Positions 2,672 through 49,047 of a DNA stretch of 64,000 bases are shown here, in pieces. The position numbers and the translations under genes were made by a program. The notes beneath the pieces are model-generated. The model searched no databases, had not been told where the DNA came from, and saw only the letters and a list, made by a program, of their open reading frames with translations. The first letter of the stretch is position 1. Each line of letters starts with the position of its first letter. Source of the stretch: a virus; the UHGV virus genome UHGV-0084588. One strand, given 5' to 3'.

Positions 2672-4966
2672 ATGAAAGATACCCGAATCTCTAATCTGGA
2701 GAAACTCGTACAAGCTGGTAACTCGCTGGTACAAAGCGTCATTAGTAACAACAGTGCTGGCGAAATGTGGAACACCATCGTTGCTGGTGAATCTGTACGT
2801 AGCAACACGAAAGTTTTTGGTACCCTGCGTGACGACGCTGCACAGCACTACGCAAACGCGTTTGCTGGCGGTAAGAAAATGTCCCACGCTGCGGAAGTTG
2901 CTTCTGCAATGATTCTGGGTGCTGCTGGTCACGGTATGGACCTGCAAGAAAAAGTAGCGCAAGAATACGCTAAACCAGAATTCCATAGCCGTTTTAACCT
3001 GGACGTTGCGATTCCTGGTTCCCAAGCTGGTAACGGCGACTGGGGCAAAGAGCGTATGGTTGTCGCTCAGGAATACTACACCAACAAAGACTACGACAAA
3101 AACCTGGGTCTGACCTGGACGCTGAACGTACGTGCTCTGGAAACTCAGTCTCGTTTCGCTGAGACTCTGTTCCCGACCATTACCGTTGACACCAACGATG
3201 TTGGTATTACCGTACGTACCAAAGTGACCACCGTTTCTCGCGGTGTAATGAACGCACTGCTGAGCAAAGACGTTGTTGAAGATCATCGTCGTCCGCTGCA
3301 CAACGCACTGACCGACCACACCGTTCTCCAGGACGAAGCGATCAACATCGTTCCTTACGTAATGGAAACCGGTGAAAACGCTGAATACTTCGTAAGCGAA
3401 GATCTGGTGCCGAACGAATCTGTTCGCCTGGGCCGTGTACCTCCGTACCCGACTAACTACCTGAGCTTTGCTAAAGACACTCTGAACCTGTTCCAGCTGT
3501 CTGCGCATCCGGGTATCGTTCAGGAAGGTTACGACGAAACTGATGAAATCGCACCGGGTTGTGCTCTGGGCAGCCTGCTGATTTCTGTACGTAAACCGAC
3601 CGAAGAAGCGAAAGCAGGTAAGTTCATCAAACTGCACGTTCGTGACATGCAGTTCGCAACCTTCCAGCGTCCTGCTGAAGGTGATGGCCGTGAGCTGGTA
3701 CTGCAATTCCGTCGTACTGCGTTCTCTCTGAACGCGAAAACTACCGACTGGACTGGTGCGGCTATTCCGGCACTGCAAGCGCTGGGTCAGAACTCTTACA
3801 CCCTGCGTTATGTGATCACCATCAACATGTCTCTGTTCACTACCGGTCAGTTCGGTGGTAAAGTTGACATCGCTGGTCACAAACTGGAAATCGAAGGTCT
3901 GTACGACGCTACCGGTAACAAAGTTGATACCAAATCTGGTACCGGCAAAGTTATCCTGGACGGTCTGAAACTTGAACTGATGGGCTGGCGCTTCGATGGT
4001 ACTCGTACCAACGAAAACCGTCGTACCCAGGGTCTGCTGCTTGACCCAATCTGGGAACAAGAAAACTACAAACTGCAATACGGTTCTCCGATTCTGACCA
4101 AGTCTCCGGTTGGCGTTGAATACGACGACACCGAACGTCTGGACGACCTGATTTCCGCAGTTAACATCCGTAACGAACAGCTGGCTATCACTCAGACGCT
4201 GTCTTACACCGAAGCGGTACGTAACGCTGCTGCAAGCATGATCACTCCGTGGGACAAACCGGCCATTCGTGGTCTGGGCCGTCACTGGGTTGCTCCGTGG
4301 TTCAAAGAGTCTGACTACAACGTTGATGAAGTTGTACAGTCCCTGGATACCAAAGATGCACTGATCAACGCTCGTCAGGGCCTGGTACAGCGTATCGGTA
4401 ATCAGGTAACTCAGGCTATCCAGGAATCTCGCTTCATTCCTGCGCTGCGTCTGTACACCGCCGATCCGGACATTCTGCCGAAAGTTGTTATTGCAACTGA
4501 CGAACCGACTGCATCTATGCTGCTGCTGGTACAGGGCGACCAACGTCTGCTGGGCGATCGCTACGAATACGAAGTGATCACCACCAACGATGACCGCTGG
4601 CGTATCTACAACGCAGCTGACGGTTCCTGGACTCGTCGTCTGCAATGGTTCCTGAAAGTTCCGACTGCGGACGATGGTTCCTACAACGTGCTGAACTGGG
4701 GTAACCACTTCTGGTCTCCGATCATGGTTACTAACATCAACATTCAGCGTAACGGCTCTACCTCTAAAGAGCTGGCCGTACAGCCGCGCAACGCACACAT
4801 CTGCCACTGCCCGATCACTGGTCTGATCTGGGTTAAAGGCATCACCAAACTGGTTGAAGAAAAACTGGCTTACAATGTTTCTGTTGAACAGAACGGTCAG
4901 AAGCAAACCGACGGTGGTGTAGCAGGTAACGTTGCTGGCGATGGCAAAGCTGCTGCTGGTAAGTAA
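2672..4966 (+). CDS. putative major capsid protein (764 aa, jumbo-phage size class)
   Basis: Strongest codon bias in the window (ctg, cgt, ggt, gaa, aaa dominate), SD taagg upstream, strong terminator directly downstream. Size matches phiKZ-type capsid proteins; homology was not verified. Confidence 0.5.
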   Translation: MKDTRISNLEKLVQAGNSLVQSVISNNSAGEMWNTIVAGESVRSNTKVFGTLRDDAAQHYANAFAGGKKMSHAAEVASAMILGAAGHGMDLQEKVAQEYAKPEFHSRFNLDVAIPGSQAGNGDWGKERMVVAQEYYTNKDYDKNLGLTWTLNVRALETQSRFAETLFPTITVDTNDVGITVRTKVTTVSRGVMNALLSKDVVEDHRRPLHNALTDHTVLQDEAINIVPYVMETGENAEYFVSEDLVPNESVRLGRVPPYPTNYLSFAKDTLNLFQLSAHPGIVQEGYDETDEIAPGCALGSLLISVRKPTEEAKAGKFIKLHVRDMQFATFQRPAEGDGRELVLQFRRTAFSLNAKTTDWTGAAIPALQALGQNSYTLRYVITINMSLFTTGQFGGKVDIAGHKLEIEGLYDATGNKVDTKSGTGKVILDGLKLELMGWRFDGTRTNENRRTQGLLLDPIWEQENYKLQYGSPILTKSPVGVEYDDTERLDDLISAVNIRNEQLAITQTLSYTEAVRNAAASMITPWDKPAIRGLGRHWVAPWFKESDYNVDEVVQSLDTKDALINARQGLVQRIGNQVTQAIQESRFIPALRLYTADPDILPKVVIATDEPTASMLLLVQGDQRLLGDRYEYEVITTNDDRWRIYNAADGSWTRRLQWFLKVPTADDGSYNVLNWGNHFWSPIMVTNINIQRNGSTSKELAVQPRNAHICHCPITGLIWVKGITKLVEEKLAYNVSVEQNGQKQTDGGVAGNVAGDGKAAAGK

Positions 4967-24565: not shown

Positions 24566-24614
24566 TGTAAATTATTACAACTGTTACTCTCATTGTGAGA
24601 GGTTTCACTTAACG
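24566..24614 (+). promoter_or_regulatory. promoter-like AT-rich motif plus palindrome (variant copy)
   Basis: aaATTATTACaactgttaCTCTCAttgTGAGAGgtttCACTTAACg upstream of the kinase-like gene at 24637. Confidence 0.35.
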
Positions 24615-25260: not shown

Positions 25261-25268
25261 CCGCTTAG

Positions 25269-25304
25269 GTACCACCCAACGGTGGTGCCTATATTTTATT
25301 TTTT
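25269..25304 (+). terminator. rho-independent terminator, immediately upstream of a promoter-like element
   Basis: GGTACCACC-caac-GGTGGTGCC followed by tatattttatttttt. Confidence 0.55.
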
Positions 25305-25350
25305 CTCAGATATATATTACTTAAGTGAGAGTTACAATTAACTCTTTACA
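25305..25350 (+). promoter_or_regulatory. conserved promoter-like element with downstream inverted repeat
   Basis: CTCAGATATATATTACttaaGTGAGAGTT...AACTCT, 45-75 nt upstream of the HTH gene. Confidence 0.45.
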
Positions 25351-25379: not shown

Positions 25380-25739
25380 ATGGCTTACAATCACAATTCC
25401 ATCGTTCTGACAAAACGTAAATTCGGTCTTCACTTGTCTTACGTAATTCGTCATTTGACCACGAAAGATATTACTCAGCGTGAGCTTGCCCAGCTTGCGA
25501 AAGTTTCACAACCCGTTATCTCATCTATTAAGAACGATCACTCAGAACGTTTAAGCTTACCGATTATGATGAAAGTTGCTGATGCGATTCGTTTGAAGTA
25601 TCAGATTAGTTTTAATTCCGTTAAGGGTCGTTGCTCAGTAACTGTCCACGTAGAGTCCGCATTGGACTACGTTGCAAACACCTCCATTAAACGCACCACG
25701 AAGAATGTGCGTTTTATCACTAACACCGCAGCACACTAA
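25380..25739 (+). CDS. XRE-family helix-turn-helix DNA-binding protein
   Basis: ITQRELAQLAKVSQPVISSIKN matches the Cro/C1-type HTH pattern; a promoter-like element lies directly upstream. Confidence 0.5.
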   Translation: MAYNHNSIVLTKRKFGLHLSYVIRHLTTKDITQRELAQLAKVSQPVISSIKNDHSERLSLPIMMKVADAIRLKYQISFNSVKGRCSVTVHVESALDYVANTSIKRTTKNVRFITNTAAH

Positions 25740-29876: not shown

Positions 29877-29881
29877 ACCTT

Positions 29882-29918
29882 CCCTCTCTCCGTTTGGAGA
29901 GAGGGAGTATTTATTTTT
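29882..29918 (+). terminator. rho-independent terminator (hairpin copy 1)
   Basis: CCCTCTCTCC-gttt-GGAGAGAGGG followed by agtatttattttt; same hairpin as 30929-30952. Confidence 0.65.
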
Positions 29919-30597: not shown

Positions 30598-30632
30598 AGA
30601 TATATTTCATCTATGTGAGAATTCTCACTTAA
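30598..30632 (+). promoter_or_regulatory. promoter-like AT-rich motif plus palindrome (variant copy)
   Basis: GATATATTTCATctatGTGAGAattCTCACTTAAC upstream of 30652. Confidence 0.35.
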
Positions 30633-30651
30633 CTAAATGGAGTAATCTAAA

Positions 30652-30921
30652 ATGGCTAAGATTTACATTGTTGAGAAACGTGCGGGTAATGTTCTTTCTT
30701 ATTACGAAGAAGGTAAGCCTGAGAAAATCAAAACACTCAAACTCGACGGGTACGATGTGAAGAGTTTACGTAAGGGTGTGAAGATTACCTTTAAAGGTCT
30801 GGTTCGCGCAGGTAACCTACACATTGTTAAGACTGACGGTACGATGGCTGCGTTAGCACCTGTCAGTGCTGCGAAAACGACAGCAGGTCGTGGCTGCTAC
30901 GGTAGCAGTCGTAAGATTTAA
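30652..30921 (+). CDS. hypothetical basic small protein (89 aa)
   Basis: ORF preceded by a promoter-like element and SD aatggag; terminator downstream. Confidence 0.45.
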   Translation: MAKIYIVEKRAGNVLSYYEEGKPEKIKTLKLDGYDVKSLRKGVKITFKGLVRAGNLHIVKTDGTMAALAPVSAAKTTAGRGCYGSSRKI

Positions 30922-30928
30922 GCAGTGC

Positions 30929-30968
30929 CCCTCTCTCCGTTTGGAGAGAGGGTACTTTTATTTTTCTT
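30929..30968 (+). terminator. rho-independent terminator (hairpin copy 2)
   Basis: CCCTCTCTCC-gttt-GGAGAGAGGG followed by tacttttatttttcttc. Confidence 0.65.
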
Positions 30969-41497: not shown

Positions 41498-42010
41498 ATG
41501 GCGGTAGCATCAGGATGGGTCGGATCTTCAGCTAAGAATGAAACTGGCGAACAATGGATGAGCGCTGCGGGTAGTAAATTAGGATTGGGTAGACCATTTA
41601 TGATGAGTCAAATGGTGGGCCGATCTACGGGTTGTAAAATTGCGACCGCTTACTACAAAGGGAATCCTCCTGATAAAGTTGAAAACTGGGGGGCCGTAGG
41701 TTCAGATTGGCCATTGGCTGAAAAGAACAAAGGCACAATTACTGGTGCTTCGAGCTGTGGTTTAGGTCGTTTAGTGGGGATCGTACTTACGCAAGCTCAC
41801 TACATTTCTGGTGTTCCACCCACTGCGGCTTTATACATCGCAGGAGGAAGGGCAAGTAATATTACAGTAACAGTTGGTGGGGTCTCACAAGTTTTCACCT
41901 ATAATAGTGTTATTAACGGTTTTCACTATTACTGGCAAGGAACACCTAGTTCGGCCTTTATAGCAGCAATGAAGAGAACGGGTGTTACACAAGATTTGAA
42001 AATTAGTTAA
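41498..42010 (+). CDS. paralog of the glycine-rich protein (N-terminal domain only, 170 aa)
   Basis: N-terminus MAVASGWVGSSAKNETGEQWMSAA aligns with MAVVGVGGWIGSSAKAEAGNEWMSGA of 40655-41437. Confidence 0.55.
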   Translation: MAVASGWVGSSAKNETGEQWMSAAGSKLGLGRPFMMSQMVGRSTGCKIATAYYKGNPPDKVENWGAVGSDWPLAEKNKGTITGASSCGLGRLVGIVLTQAHYISGVPPTAALYIAGGRASNITVTVGGVSQVFTYNSVINGFHYYWQGTPSSAFIAAMKRTGVTQDLKIS

Positions 42011-43298: not shown

Positions 43299-43304
43299 AT
43301 TTTA

Positions 43305-43352
43305 GGTAGTAGGGGCTTAAGCCCCTACTACCTTTTCTTTTTTTTATTTTTT
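43305..43352 (+). terminator. rho-independent terminator after the fibre module
   Basis: GGTAGTAGGGGC-ttaa-GCCCCTACTACC followed by ttttcttttttttatttttt. Confidence 0.7.
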
Positions 43353-43398
43353 CTCAGATATATATTACCTAGGGGAGAGTGAAATTTACATTCACTCC
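43353..43398 (+). promoter_or_regulatory. conserved promoter-like element with downstream inverted repeat
   Basis: CTCAGATATATATTACCTAGGgGAGAGTGAAatttacaTTCACTCC upstream of 43426. Confidence 0.45.
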
Positions 43399-43425: not shown

Positions 43426-44277
43426 ATGTATCACCCGTATTATCTCCCGCGTATTCTAGCAAATAGGGACCCTGGTTATTACTACGAACAAACAAAGGGG
43501 TCTTTTAATCGACTTTACATTCGTGAATTTAATACCGACGAAATGACCGATGACCAGTATCTGGAGTATCTAAAAGACCTTTACAGTTTTTCAAAATCGA
43601 ATAAAGATGGCTTTGGACGTTCCGCAGTCATTAGAGATGGTGAATATCGCCATTTGGCTAAGCCTGTTACGTACCCTATTGTTACGCGAGCTTATACGTC
43701 GGATAGGCAATATATTGCTGAACTAAAATTTCCTTTACGGATAGACGGGCCTCAAATTAGCGCTATAGAAGTAGAAATTCAACCAATTGCTGAAAACTAT
43801 ATTGAGGACTACTTCAAGAAAGCTAAAGACGTACTCGACGAGGGTTTAAGTTACTCTGAAGAAGGCACGATTTGTCTTCTCTCGTTACTCACGAAGACTT
43901 ACGTCACGGCAAATTTCCGTGTCTCTGATTCCAGTAACTACAATACACTTACTCCCTCTAAGACAAAATCGGTTTATTGGGACGATCGGTTAGTCGACAG
44001 ACAACGCTGGCTTACTATCTTAGATAGAGTAAAATTCGAACCCCCTAAACACACCGAAGACAATTTTATTTTATTGCACAACTTCGAACCAATTTATATT
44101 CCAACGCATTTTGATCAAGCCTTACGTCATCGGTTGAAGTATGTGTTGGAATTACGGTACGGAAAGATAAACGGACTAACCTGTTCCGGTGAATTGGGTG
44201 AAGAAGAACGCGAGAAGATAAAAATCGTGTTTGATAAGTTGGTTGAAGATTACATTAAGAAGGAAGGGCAATTATGA
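43426..44277 (+). CDS. hypothetical protein (283 aa)
   Basis: ORF preceded by a promoter-like element and SD aaggagg. Confidence 0.5.
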   Translation: MYHPYYLPRILANRDPGYYYEQTKGSFNRLYIREFNTDEMTDDQYLEYLKDLYSFSKSNKDGFGRSAVIRDGEYRHLAKPVTYPIVTRAYTSDRQYIAELKFPLRIDGPQISAIEVEIQPIAENYIEDYFKKAKDVLDEGLSYSEEGTICLLSLLTKTYVTANFRVSDSSNYNTLTPSKTKSVYWDDRLVDRQRWLTILDRVKFEPPKHTEDNFILLHNFEPIYIPTHFDQALRHRLKYVLELRYGKINGLTCSGELGEEEREKIKIVFDKLVEDYIKKEGQL

Positions 44278-45983: not shown

Positions 45984-46370
45984 ATGCGTTTATTTTACTT
46001 AAAAAGGCGTTTGTCATTAAAAGCCCAACTGTTTGTTAACGAGAAAGTTAAAAACTGGCTGTGCGGTAAAAGGGTACAATATGTCGTTAAAGAAGGAGAC
46101 TGGTATACGGAGGTTGTGACTTCCCCTAACGGTGAACTTATAAACGTTACTATTCGTGACGTTATGGTTAAGGTTGGTAGGGGTGGCGGTCGGTTGTTTG
46201 AATCGGAAACTATAAGAGTCGCTGCTAAACAATTGAAAGATGGTCGAGTTTTATTCAATGTTACCGCCCAGAAATACTACGACAATTTATTCGAGTGTCA
46301 ACGAGCAATGGACAGAATGACCCGTGAGATGCGAAGAATGCACATTACGGAGATCACAATAGGAGTTTAA
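45984..46370 (+). CDS. hypothetical protein, tandem paralog B (128 aa)
   Basis: See 45606-45980. Confidence 0.5.
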   Translation: MRLFYLKRRLSLKAQLFVNEKVKNWLCGKRVQYVVKEGDWYTEVVTSPNGELINVTIRDVMVKVGRGGGRLFESETIRVAAKQLKDGRVLFNVTAQKYYDNLFECQRAMDRMTREMRRMHITEITIGV

Positions 46371-46681
46371 TGATGGAAAATAAAATCGCGAACACATCGG
46401 CACCTGAGAACATTGTCAATTATATTCTCAGAGGCGGGTTATTAGAAGACAACAAAGAAACGTGCGATAAACTCGTTTCTCAACTACTGCCTATTCGTTC
46501 AGAATACTGCGAAATCGTTATCTTAGGTTCCGAGTATTGTGTACGCTCTTACTGCCGACGTTTCGAAGCCCTACGTGTACCTCGTACGTTAGGTGGTGTG
46601 ATCTTACTGATCTCATCTTTTCAAGACGCCCATGTGCGTGTGGCGACCTGGATTGCCAGAGGAGGTAACAGTGGTTTTTAA
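46370..46681 (+). CDS. hypothetical protein (103 aa)
   Basis: ORF start overlaps the upstream stop. Confidence 0.45.
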   Translation: MMENKIANTSAPENIVNYILRGGLLEDNKETCDKLVSQLLPIRSEYCEIVILGSEYCVRSYCRRFEALRVPRTLGGVILLISSFQDAHVRVATWIARGGNSGF

Positions 46682-46979
46682 ATTGCTAGGTTTCGGAAAA
46701 TGCAAAGAGTGCGCAAAGCACGAAGAATTTATCAAGCTATTAGAAGAAACAGTTGAAACACAACAAGAACTCATTTCTGAATACCGTGCGAAAACTGGTT
46801 CAGTAGAATATCTGACCATCCTTGTTTGTGCTATTGCTGAGTTGGGTTGTGAGGGGGAATTGCCTAAAGAGGAGATATTAAAACTATTAAAAGAAAAAAC
46901 GTCGTTTTACCGTAAAGATATTGAAGCGTGTAAACGTGAGGTTAAAAGAGCTAACTGGGAGGTTATCAATGAAGCGTGA
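46671..46979 (+). CDS. hypothetical protein (about 102 aa, GTG start)
   Basis: Track ORF 46632-46979 trimmed to the GTG at 46671, which has SD ggaggt 5 nt upstream. Confidence 0.4.
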   Translation: MVFKLLGFGKCKECAKHEEFIKLLEETVETQQELISEYRAKTGSVEYLTILVCAIAELGCEGELPKEEILKLLKEKTSFYRKDIEACKREVKRANWEVINEA

Positions 46980-47250
46980 AACTATTGTATTTTGTCAAAA
47001 CGGTGATGTAAAACAATACCGGGGCAAGAAGTTAATTCGTACGTTAGATTATCGCGAAGCAAAACGTTTCGTTGAAGAGTGTGCGTGGTTAATGCATTAC
47101 GAAGGGAACTATCGCGCCATCTTAGAAGCACCGCGTTTAGAACGTGCAGTTGCGCAGATGGCAATAGGTAATCCTAAGAACTGTTACCTGGCCCGTAAGC
47201 CCAAATACCTACAGCGTGTCTCGCTAGGCAGTTTTATTGCGGGTTTTTAA
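46969..47250 (+). CDS. hypothetical protein (about 93 aa)
   Basis: Track ORF 46921-47250 trimmed to the ATG at 46969 with SD gggagg upstream. Confidence 0.4.
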   Translation: MKRETIVFCQNGDVKQYRGKKLIRTLDYREAKRFVEECAWLMHYEGNYRAILEAPRLERAVAQMAIGNPKNCYLARKPKYLQRVSLGSFIAGF

Positions 47251-47260
47251 TAAAAATATT

Positions 47261-47307
47261 TTCAGATATATATTACCTAGGTGAGAGTTCAGTTACTCTC
47301 ACTTAAC
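47261..47307 (+). promoter_or_regulatory. conserved promoter-like element with perfect palindrome
   Basis: TTCAGATATATATTACCTAGGTGAGAGTtcagttACTCTCACTTAACG upstream of 47332. Confidence 0.45.
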
Positions 47308-47331
47308 GAAACCATTTTAGGAGAATATACC

Positions 47332-47826
47332 ATGAACTTCACTAGACTTGATTACACTAACGAATTAGTCGACAAAGAAAAATACAAATTCACGATTGAC
47401 TTGGGTTACGGGCTGTGGGACGTAGAAAAAGATATTCTACACAAAGAATTCCGTGAGCAATTCGGTGCATTATTCTGCGCAGGATTCCGTAGAAATTCTA
47501 TTGATATCGGTTATGGTGCAACACCGTATAGCGACGAAGAAATGTTTACGCTGATAACACAGATTATCGGAACTCGTGTGGCTAAACGTTTTAATTATTC
47601 TAACGAACTTGTTTCGAAAGAACATTACAAGTTCACTGTTAGACTACCTGTTCCTCTCTTTAAAGAAGATAAGAATAGACTCTATAAAGCCCTACAAACC
47701 GAATTCGGTAAAACGCTCAAAATAGGGTTCCGCAGTCGTAGTATCGATATCGGAATTAGCGTAGACGTGTGCAGTGACGATGACCTTTACGAATTAGTTT
47801 CGGAAGTTATCGGAAAACACCTCTAA
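47332..47826 (+). CDS. protein built from two tandem copies of an 80-aa domain (about 164 aa)
   Basis: Halves align (Y.NELV.KE.YKFT..L...L......L.K.....FG.....GFR..SIDIG); track start 47281 lies inside the promoter-like palindrome, so the ATG at 47332 with SD aggag is preferred. Confidence 0.5.
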   Translation: MNFTRLDYTNELVDKEKYKFTIDLGYGLWDVEKDILHKEFREQFGALFCAGFRRNSIDIGYGATPYSDEEMFTLITQIIGTRVAKRFNYSNELVSKEHYKFTVRLPVPLFKEDKNRLYKALQTEFGKTLKIGFRSRSIDIGISVDVCSDDDLYELVSEVIGKHL

Positions 47827-47870
47827 GCGTAAATTAACGCTTCAGCTTGTAAAACCAAAAGGAAAATAAA

Positions 47871-48647
47871 ATGAAAACTATCGAGTTTAAGAATAGTAGT
47901 CTTTGGGCATACACGCACATCATTACGAGTTTCCTGAGAAACGTTACTCCACATCTTGCTTATCAGATTTATGGGAATGAGCTCACTATCGGTGGTTTTA
48001 ACGAGGATGAATTAAAACGAGCAAAAGAGTTCATTGACGATGTTCTTCGTGGTGAAGCAACGTGTTTAGTTGCAAGTTACGTTGCTAAAGACAAAGGAAG
48101 ATTAAACGTCATGGCAATTTTCAGATCGTTCTCCGAAAAAGTATACGAAGTTGAGAAGATTAGTCATACCGTTTATATTGTTTACTTTAAACGTTCGGCG
48201 GAGAAAAACGCTGATAAAATTCTGGAGTATTTCGACTGTAACCCGGGGGAAGGTATGGATGTCTATACGCTCGGTTACGATGGGGTACCTCACCGGAATA
48301 ACCTTATTCGCATTGACGAACCTTTTTCAGTCAATGACGATTCCTCGCCTATAGAGATGGTTCTGGTACACAAAGATCGTTTCGCGCATTACGACTCTGA
48401 TACTATTCAACGTGTCCTGAACAACGTTAATATACAGTTTTCACAAACCGAGCACTTAGTACGTGCATGTCTTAGGTCTAATGGCACAACATCATTTTTC
48501 TTCGAACGTCAAACCGTTTGGCAAACTTATCTGGCTCTGATGGAAGAACTTGATAGGATCGAGCCAGTTCAGGTTGGTGCAAATTGCTTATATTGGATAA
48601 AAACAAAAGGGTTCATGAATGAAAACGCTCAATTCAGATTTGCGTGA
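47871..48647 (+). CDS. hypothetical protein (258 aa)
   Basis: ORF with SD aaggaaa upstream. Confidence 0.5.
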   Translation: MKTIEFKNSSLWAYTHIITSFLRNVTPHLAYQIYGNELTIGGFNEDELKRAKEFIDDVLRGEATCLVASYVAKDKGRLNVMAIFRSFSEKVYEVEKISHTVYIVYFKRSAEKNADKILEYFDCNPGEGMDVYTLGYDGVPHRNNLIRIDEPFSVNDDSSPIEMVLVHKDRFAHYDSDTIQRVLNNVNIQFSQTEHLVRACLRSNGTTSFFFERQTVWQTYLALMEELDRIEPVQVGANCLYWIKTKGFMNENAQFRFA

Positions 48648-49047
48648 TTACATCCGTCAGTACCCAGCCAGTATTCCTGTACTGGCTTCACTTACGCTTT
48701 CAGGTACTGACGTTAACATCTTAACGGTGGAACAGTTCCACGAGATAATAAAAACCGCCTATAACTCCATTACCGCAACGTCAGTACGTAAACGTTGCGA
48801 TTATCCCGACGGGGATTTCGGCACCGAGATGTTTACCGATTACGCAGTTGCGTTTCTGTTAGGACGACACTGCCTCGATAAACTTAACACTGCAGTAGAA
48901 GGGGAAACAGTGACGGAAATAGTCAACGCTTGGCAGCAACGTATTCTGAGCGACCCTTACTGCCGCCAGGCGTTAAAACGAATGTCCACAACGGCGATTA
49001 CAAACGACCAGCGTGCTTTAGAGTTCTTTAAGCACAACTACAGCTAA
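48619..49047 (+). CDS. hypothetical protein, paralog of 49908-50339 (142 aa)
   Basis: N-terminal L.D.IR.YIR..P....VLA.....TD....L...E...EI..T.Y..I shared with 49908-50339. Confidence 0.5.
   Translation: MKTLNSDLRDYIRQYPASIPVLASLTLSGTDVNILTVEQFHEIIKTAYNSITATSVRKRCDYPDGDFGTEMFTDYAVAFLLGRHCLDKLNTAVEGETVTEIVNAWQQRILSDPYCRQALKRMSTTAITNDQRALEFFKHNYS

Follow-up and report, generated by a model that had tools for sequence, protein, structure and literature searches.

The inverted repeat at 47281-47302 of the virus genome UHGV-0084588 (positions are those of the 64,000-nucleotide stretch analysed here, referred to as the window) is most likely made up of the first 18-20 bases of an early mRNA of a giant phage, which would fold as a small hairpin at the 5' end of the message. 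The motif just upstream of the repeat is, to judge by its sequence and context, an early promoter of the phiKZ type, served by the virion RNA polymerase, with the start site and the timing of transcription borrowed from relatives. A preliminary description of the window had drawn attention to this 'promoter motif', which went unrecognised there as the virion RNA polymerase early promoter of phiKZ-like jumbo phages, and to the palindrome behind it, for which it had suggested either an operator bound by a dimeric helix-turn-helix (HTH) protein or a 5' RNA hairpin concerned with stability or translational control. Comparison of the copies of this promoter within the phage group establishes that the hairpin occupies a fixed position behind it, is enriched over controls and has a covarying stem.

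The early genes of this group of jumbo phages are transcribed by a polymerase carried in the virion, and how the first messages survive and are translated in a host that is still fully active is poorly understood. If the reading proposed below is correct, the question would have a simple answer in cis, namely a covarying hairpin at the 5' terminus that comes with the early promoter, and promoter and leader together would offer a compact cassette for the engineering of these phages. The element combines known kinds, a phage early promoter and a 5' stem-loop, rather than representing a new kind, and as such will not surprise a specialist. No description of the motif or of the hairpin in phages like SPN3US, to whose group the window is assigned below, was found in searchable papers, which exclude most subscription-journal articles.

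The early promoter and its predicted start site

The window belongs, on the evidence of its protein sequences and gene order, to a phiKZ-like jumbo phage of the SPN3US/Asesino group. The open reading frame (ORF) at 2672-4966 encodes the major capsid protein (PF25620 PhiKZ_MCP, E 1e-208), which is approximately 80% identical to those of the Erwinia phages Asesino and phiEaH2 and of the Salmonella phage SPN3US. The gene order of the window parallels that of the annotated SPN3US genome from approximately 68 to 145 kb, including a thymidylate kinase gene followed by an HTH gene. In SPN3US, genes for several RNA polymerase beta-like subunits lie outside the region corresponding to the window, and polymerase subunits were not identified within the window. 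Metagenomic relatives are present in IMG/VR at 81-97% nucleotide identity.

The promoter core at 47263-47276 (+ strand) is an exact copy of the 14-mer CAGATATATATTAC, which also occurs at 25307 and 43355, and T-rich sequence precedes each of the three. This 14-mer matches the published early-promoter consensus of phiKZ, TATATTAC, which is lengthened in related jumbo phages to ...TATTAYnnnnGTG (PMC7058600). The AT-rich early elements of phiKZ-like phages are centred near -10 and have been ascribed to the virion-packaged multisubunit RNA polymerase (PMC7598289; PMC8244752). In AR9 the consensus is AAATATATATTAT-N6-G(+1), and the start site of phiKZ and phiR1-37 likewise lies 6 nucleotides (nt) downstream (PMC5312081). 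In the window the core is separated from the predicted start by the 6-nt spacer CTAGGT (47277-47282, +), of the form YTAGGT that is nearly invariant across the family. Application of the 6-nt rule to TATTAC and CTAGGT places +1 at G47283 and, in the same way, at G25327 and G43375 for the other two copies. The early RNA from 47263 would then begin GAGAGU..., and the repeat would form a hairpin at its extreme 5' end. Each of the three promoters is followed at 58-60 nt by an ATG on the + strand that has a Shine-Dalgarno (SD) motif, and two of the promoters come after intrinsic terminators. In these respects they resemble the early promoters of phiKZ, AR9, 201phi2-1, OBP and N1M2, which share the AT-rich core, the T-rich upstream sequence and a conserved G approximately 6 nt downstream, and which also occur in multiple copies before operons, often right after a terminator. 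They differ in that the conserved block of this clade runs on to CAGATATATATTAC-YTAGGT-GAGAG and is usually followed by a complementary, hairpin-forming segment. A host sigma-70 promoter was considered and rejected, as a scan for such promoters gave 10 sites against 12.8 expected and the motif at 47247-47274 is merely a 9/12 match.

The palindrome itself was found as it had been described, with GTGAGAGT-tcagtt-ACTCTCAC at 47281-47302 forming a perfect inverted repeat of 8 base pairs (bp) with a 6-nt spacer. This DNA palindrome exceeds the predicted 5'-terminal RNA hairpin, GAGAGU-ucaguu-ACUCUC at 47283-47300 (+), by 2 bp on each side, and the first base of the hairpin is the predicted +1, G47283. 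The hairpin has a minimum free energy of -8.4 kcal/mol (z -2.9) and accounts for 95% of the predicted ensemble. In the IMG/VR orthologues of the 47263 copy the stem is kept, with a U-A pair changed to U.G, and the loop is altered. Downstream lie the SD sequence AGGAG (47319-47323) and the ATG at 47332 (together 47319-47334, +) of a 164-amino-acid gene, 47332-47826, which is the gene behind this promoter and would have a 5' untranslated region of approximately 49 nt. The listing of ORFs gave instead a 181-amino-acid ORF at 47281-47826, with a GTG start inside the palindrome. This ORF is an artefact of the listing, the true start almost certainly being the ATG at 47332 with its SD sequence.

A single palindrome of this kind lies within chance expectation, and was matched in 22 of 100 shuffles in a sequence-specific search that allowed up to 3 mismatches. 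Perfect 8-bp hairpins with loops of 3-10 nt gave 65 nested hits at approximately 30 loci across the window, against 9.4 expected. These loci are mostly GC-rich intergenic stems, many with TTCG-type loops, and most are presumably intrinsic terminators. Moreover, each of the five hairpins of the window that are considered here is modest (-5.9 to -8.4 kcal/mol, z -1.6 to -3.3). Significance comes from the whole set of promoters and not from the palindrome at 47281-47302 taken singly.

Position and covariation of the hairpin

The promoter set was assembled from the whole SPN3US genome, 50 kb of Asesino, one Huxley locus and those IMG/VR loci that carry the promoter. A hairpin is present at predicted +1 to +3 behind all seven strong promoters of SPN3US, as it is behind the three consensus promoters of the window. 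The SPN3US stems vary in sequence yet remain complementary: AGATGAG/CTCATCT, AGATTGC/GTAATCT (which includes a G.U pair), TGATAGA/TCTATCA, GAGAGTT/AACTCTC, AGAGTTAA/TTAACTCT, GAGTTAA/TTAACTC and AGCGTTA/TAACGCT. When a hairpin was defined as a helix starting at +1 to +3 with a free energy of -5 kcal/mol or lower, one was found in 32 of 50 distinct promoter contexts of the phage group. The same definition returned 10 of 91 chance matches to the 14-mer in unrelated viral contigs (Fisher p about 9e-11 for the comparison with 32/50), 3 of 85 look-alikes within coding sequence and 6.7% of shuffled sequences in which the first five bases were kept. Of the 50 copies, 38 have the first base of the helix exactly at predicted +1 and a further 7 have it at +2 or +3. 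Loop length is 3-11 nt in the family and 0-7 nt at the five sites of the window, the 5' arm takes 18 different sequences, and the end of the hairpin is separated from the SD-like motif by 14-25 nt. A simpler count of perfect stems with G.U pairs allowed was dropped in favour of energy and position because it gave too many background hits, with stems of at least 6 bp in 18 of 93 controls.

Two of these control sets arose from the searches themselves. A harvest of IMG/VR by the 14-mer alone gave mostly chance hits, and a search with AGATATATATTACNTNNGTGA returned more than 100 marine contigs in which the string is coding sequence; both were reused as negative controls. The 21-mer AGATATATATTACnTnnGTGA was seen in more than 100 small marine or environmental contigs of IMG/VR, inside the conserved coding sequence T-E-D-P-N-F-E-D-I-Y-Y-V-G-E-V-K and with no hairpin after it; it is a coincidental promoter look-alike and served as a negative control.

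A covariance model built from nine copies recovered 69 sites, 60 of them distinct. Among the 60 distinct sequences 93% of cells are paired, compared with 75% after shuffling, six of the eight pairs are altered on both sides and 56 cells are compensatory. The covariation score of 0.281 compares with 0.094 for shuffled alignments, none of 500 of which reached the observed value, and with 0.006-0.054 when the pairing partners were slid. The base of the stem is conserved, G1 A2 G3 A4 being paired with Y-U-C-U. Cells of the G.T type (60) outnumber those of the A.C type (9), and still do so when the first pair is left out (19 against 9). This excess leans towards a structure of the sense strand, that is, towards RNA.

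When 46000-49000 was compared with known phages by megablast, the sole match was the 59-bp segment of promoter plus palindrome at 47249-47307, at 86-97% identity, and all matches lay in jumbo Erwinia and Salmonella phages (Machinavirus and Seoulvirus genomes). At paralogous sites of SPN3US whole leaders are near-identical. Together these two observations hint at homogenisation or exchange of cassettes. A search of Rfam gave no match at gathering score anywhere in the window.

Proposed protection of the 5' end and alternative readings

The most plausible role of the hairpin is protection of the 5' ends of early mRNAs, to which we assign a probability of roughly 55%, by analogy with bacterial messages. 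The virion-packaged multisubunit RNA polymerase would recognise TTT-CAGATATATATTAC-YTAGGT and initiate six bases further on, at a G, as the rule of phiKZ, phiR1-37 and AR9 predicts. The first bases, GAGAG..., would be conserved as initially transcribed sequence, and the segment downstream would have evolved to pair with them. The transcript would consequently open with a hairpin of 6-9 bp, leaving from none to at most two 5' nucleotides unpaired, and the paired end may shield early messages from RppH and RNase E in the enterobacterial host. RNase E, through its 5' sensor, and RppH both require a single-stranded 5' end, which is how the stabilising effect of 5' stem-loops is generally explained (PMC3997798), so a paired end should prolong the life of an early message. 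Stabilising stem-loops of this sort are cited for the ompA and papA mRNAs of Escherichia coli (Emory, Bouvet, Arnold, Bricker, Belasco, as cited in PMC3997798). Like these, the hairpins described here are short, leave few nucleotides or none unpaired at the 5' terminus and lie clear of the ribosome-binding site, on its upstream side. They differ in that their stems are AU-rich and weaker and recur as a family with covarying stems, and stabilisation is here a matter of analogy.

The preliminary suggestion of an RNA hairpin affecting stability or translation thus agrees with the position at the start site, the compensatory changes and the tolerance of G.U pairs. That part of it which would have the hairpin occlude the ribosome-binding site directly is unlikely, since the gap of 14-25 nt before the SD-like motif leaves that site free. 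Conserved initially transcribed bases are also built into a leader stem-loop in phage T7, in which class III transcripts (for example the gene 10 leader) start with a stem-loop that includes such bases of the phage-polymerase promoter. Unlike in T7, the polymerase here would be a multisubunit virion enzyme. A circumstantial point concerns the degradosome inhibitor Dip of phiKZ (gp37; L262:30298-31119), homologues of which were found by tblastn in 45 Pseudomonas phage records only, all phiKZ-like, with none among the SPN3US-like enterobacterial jumbo phages.

Several points weigh against protection of the 5' end by an RNA hairpin. No mapped transcript 5' ends for SPN3US-like phages were found in searchable papers, and the start site, carried over from phiKZ, phiR1-37 and AR9, could be shifted by 1-2 nt. 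With free energies of -4 to -9 kcal/mol the hairpins are weak, and they are common rather than universal, 18 of the 50 copies being without a strong one. Without the first pair, G.T cells are in only modest excess. The pairing counts are inflated because the covariance model fitted the alignment to the structure, and the copies are related paralogues and orthologues rather than independent events. Finally, the conserved CACTTAAC or TTAAC-like tail that follows the hairpin is unexplained by protection of the 5' end.

Alternatively, the hairpin might act in transcription itself, as a structure of the nascent RNA or of the non-template DNA that aids promoter clearance by a sigma-less polymerase, displaces the RNA or causes promoter-proximal pausing. 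Such a role would suit the tie between the hairpin, the start site and a single class of promoter, as well as the fact that the left arm is the conserved initially transcribed GAGAG, and the non-virion polymerase of phiKZ is reportedly sensitive to sequence downstream of the start (PMC7598289). We nevertheless regard it as unlikely. In the first 50 kb of phiKZ just one or two of seven early promoters, which have the same core, carry a hairpin, loop length and stem sequence vary freely, and the 18 family copies with a weak or missing hairpin argue against an obligatory step of initiation. The rarity of the hairpin in phiKZ and its weakness or absence in those copies indicate that it is not needed for initiation, and an accessory post-transcriptional role fits better.

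One such role, rather improbable in our view, is that of an identity tag on early mRNAs, read by a specific RNA-binding factor of the phage or host for selective translation and ribosome recruitment, or for sorting or export from an early infection compartment. The conserved base of the stem and the CACTTAAC or TTAAC-like tail would then be the recognition surface, and the hairpin a cis-acting mark of identity rather than a passive stabiliser. Confinement to one temporal class of transcripts, the conserved stem base and the semi-conserved motif after the hairpin (CACTTAAC, TTAAC or AATCGAC) are all in keeping with a tag. Against it, loops (3-11 nt) and upper stems vary, unlike those of hairpins typically recognised by proteins, the hairpin is missing at most early promoters in the first 50 kb of phiKZ, and no candidate binding protein was identified in this analysis.

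The preliminary description had inclined to a different protein partner. It had pointed out that one copy of the palindrome lies upstream of an XRE-type HTH gene, and this holds, since the copy at 25327-25346 precedes the ATG at 25380 of such a gene (25380-25739, +), the 119-amino-acid product of which matches Pfam HTH_37, HTH_26 and HTH_3. Orthologues, at 38-43% identity, occur across the SPN3US-like phages. The inverted repeat would on this account be a DNA operator at which a dimer of the HTH protein represses these promoters and its own gene. The repeat does overlap the start site, which is the classical position for a repressor, and the protein does have an HTH domain, which is conserved within the clade. 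An inverted repeat over the transcription start with an XRE-type gene nearby is also what is seen with XRE/Cro-type operators. Unlike in such operators, however, half-site sequence, spacing and orientation all vary between copies: the arms are 0-11 nt apart, they fall into 18 distinct 5' sequences and at 24587 their order is reversed. Only the first 4-5 bases of the arm are conserved and neither spacing nor orientation is fixed, and with loops, arms and orientation so variable a single dimeric protein cannot recognise them all. The hairpins that precede the HTH orthologues illustrate this, with loops of 4 nt in the window, 7 nt in SPN3US and 8 nt in Asesino. Changes between copies are compensatory instead of being avoided, G.T is tolerated above A.C, and the sole invariant part is the left arm GGTGAGAG, which is common to the promoter and the initial transcribed sequence.

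The suggestion of autoregulation falls with the operator, which we hold to be very improbable. The HTH gene, like many unrelated genes, has the general early promoter in front of it, and its position therefore means that it is an early gene and not that it is autoregulated. Nothing shows the HTH protein to be a partner of the palindromes; its orthologues too simply sit behind the early promoter. For annotation it follows that the palindrome is unfit for inferring a repressor-operator circuit of the HTH gene, and that the ORF starting at GTG 47281 should not be called.

It is scarcely credible that the element is a cassette for recombination or mobility of the PeSL kind, or a cruciform, with the RNA hairpin incidental: the 59-bp segment is conserved at 86-97% with no other nucleotide similarity in the 3-kb query, the whole leaders at paralogous SPN3US sites are near-identical and shuffling by way of cassettes of promoter and stem-loop is known from PeSLs (PMC2839356), but recombination needs identity and not self-complementarity, which leaves the compensatory changes and the fixed +1 unexplained, the short AT-rich stems are poor cruciform formers, and the stem-loop of a PeSL is a terminator within or upstream of the promoter.

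Three known systems that resemble the element were considered as candidates for its identity and rejected. The PeSLs of T4-type phages consist of a sigma-70 promoter with a GC-rich terminator stem-loop within or upstream of it or just before the start site (PMC2839356). They are alike in being repeated intergenic units of early promoter, stem-loop and SD sequence that are conserved between otherwise diverged genomes. Here, sigma-70 sites are not above chance, the hairpin is AU-rich, has no T-run and lies downstream of the start, and a separate GC-rich terminator is found upstream. The promoter of the N4 virion RNA polymerase is a DNA hairpin of the template strand, centred at -11 with a 3-nt loop and used by a single-subunit polymerase (PMC4496689). 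It is alike in being an inverted repeat at an early promoter of a virion polymerase, with stem bases that are partly free if pairing is kept. The repeat here instead occupies +1 to approximately +20 and has loops of 3-11 nt. An intrinsic terminator or attenuator is not in keeping with AU-rich stems that are without U-tracts, and the terminator scan skips 47281-47302, true terminators lying upstream of the promoters. The scan does list 43377-43397, but with the tail CATTAGTTAT.

Further copies and minor features

The four variant inverted repeats that had been listed near 24587, 25327, 30615 and 43377 were all found in the sequence. It had been proposed that such a repeat follows each promoter-like copy. 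Three of the sites lie 6 nt after an exact CAGATATATATTAC; those at 24587 and 30615 follow only a degenerate form of the motif.

The second copy of the element (25307-25346, +), upstream of the HTH gene, comprises the core at 25307-25320, the spacer TTAAGT and the hairpin GAGAGUUA-caau-UAACUCUU at 25327-25346, which in DNA form is GAGAGTTA-caat-TAACTCTT. It scores 60.5 bits with the covariance model, its hairpin has a predicted free energy of -6.5 kcal/mol, and it is preceded by a terminator hairpin with a T-run at 25267-25290. The same layout is seen before gp165 of SPN3US and gp118 of Asesino, both orthologues of the HTH gene. The third copy (43355-43398, +), upstream of the gene at 43426-44277, has its core at 43355-43368, the spacer CTAGGG and a hairpin at 43375-43398, with the stem GAGUGAA/UUCACUC at 43377-43397 (GAGTGAA-atttaca-TTCACTC in DNA). 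This hairpin has a free energy of -7.6 kcal/mol (z -3.3) and a terminator lies upstream of the element at 43304-43333. The copy was recovered by the covariance model, and the orthologous locus L145 keeps the stem with a different loop.

Membership of the two remaining sites is uncertain. The first (30598-30628, +), upstream of the gene at 30652-30921, consists of the degenerate promoter-like AGATATATTTCAT and the palindrome GTGAGAA/TTCTCAC at 30615-30628 (-5.9 kcal/mol). The other (24571-24613, +), upstream of the thymidylate kinase gene (24637), consists of the degenerate ATTATTAC, the repeat CTCTCA-ttg-TGAGAG at 24587-24601 (-7.0 kcal/mol), in which the arms stand in the opposite order to that of the other copies, and then CACTTAAC. 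Neither 24587 nor 30615 was recovered by the covariance model at E<=1, and in SPN3US and Asesino the thymidylate kinase gene is preceded by neither the degenerate promoter nor the repeat. A degenerate CAGATAGATGTTAT was seen in SPN3US at approximately 100810-100830 and in Asesino (L126) at approximately 41955-41975, in intergenic gaps that, as gene order suggests, correspond to that of 30598-30616. Additional promoter variants of the TATTAT type gave weak model scores. The degenerate variants may be a second, weaker class of promoter.

A motif that was said often to trail the repeat, CACTTAAC, follows three of the five sites (24606-24613, 30626-30633 and 47300-47307). The copy at 47300-47307 (+) is directly 3' of the hairpin and is kept in the orthologous loci L093, L134 and L143. 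The form TCTCACTTAAC is present at two of the three sites, and in other members of the family a TTAAC-like or AATCGAC motif takes the place of CACTTAAC after the hairpin.

Two further observations concern terminators. In SPN3US, at 165686-165757, a strong GC-rich intrinsic terminator, GGCTACCTTCGGGTAGCC with a T-run, comes directly after an early promoter and its 5' hairpin, an arrangement that would give an early RNA of approximately 50-60 nt or an attenuator. In the window the terminator-like hairpin CCCTCTCTCCGTTTGGAGAGAGGG occurs twice, at 29881-29906 and 30929-30952, approximately 1 kb apart.

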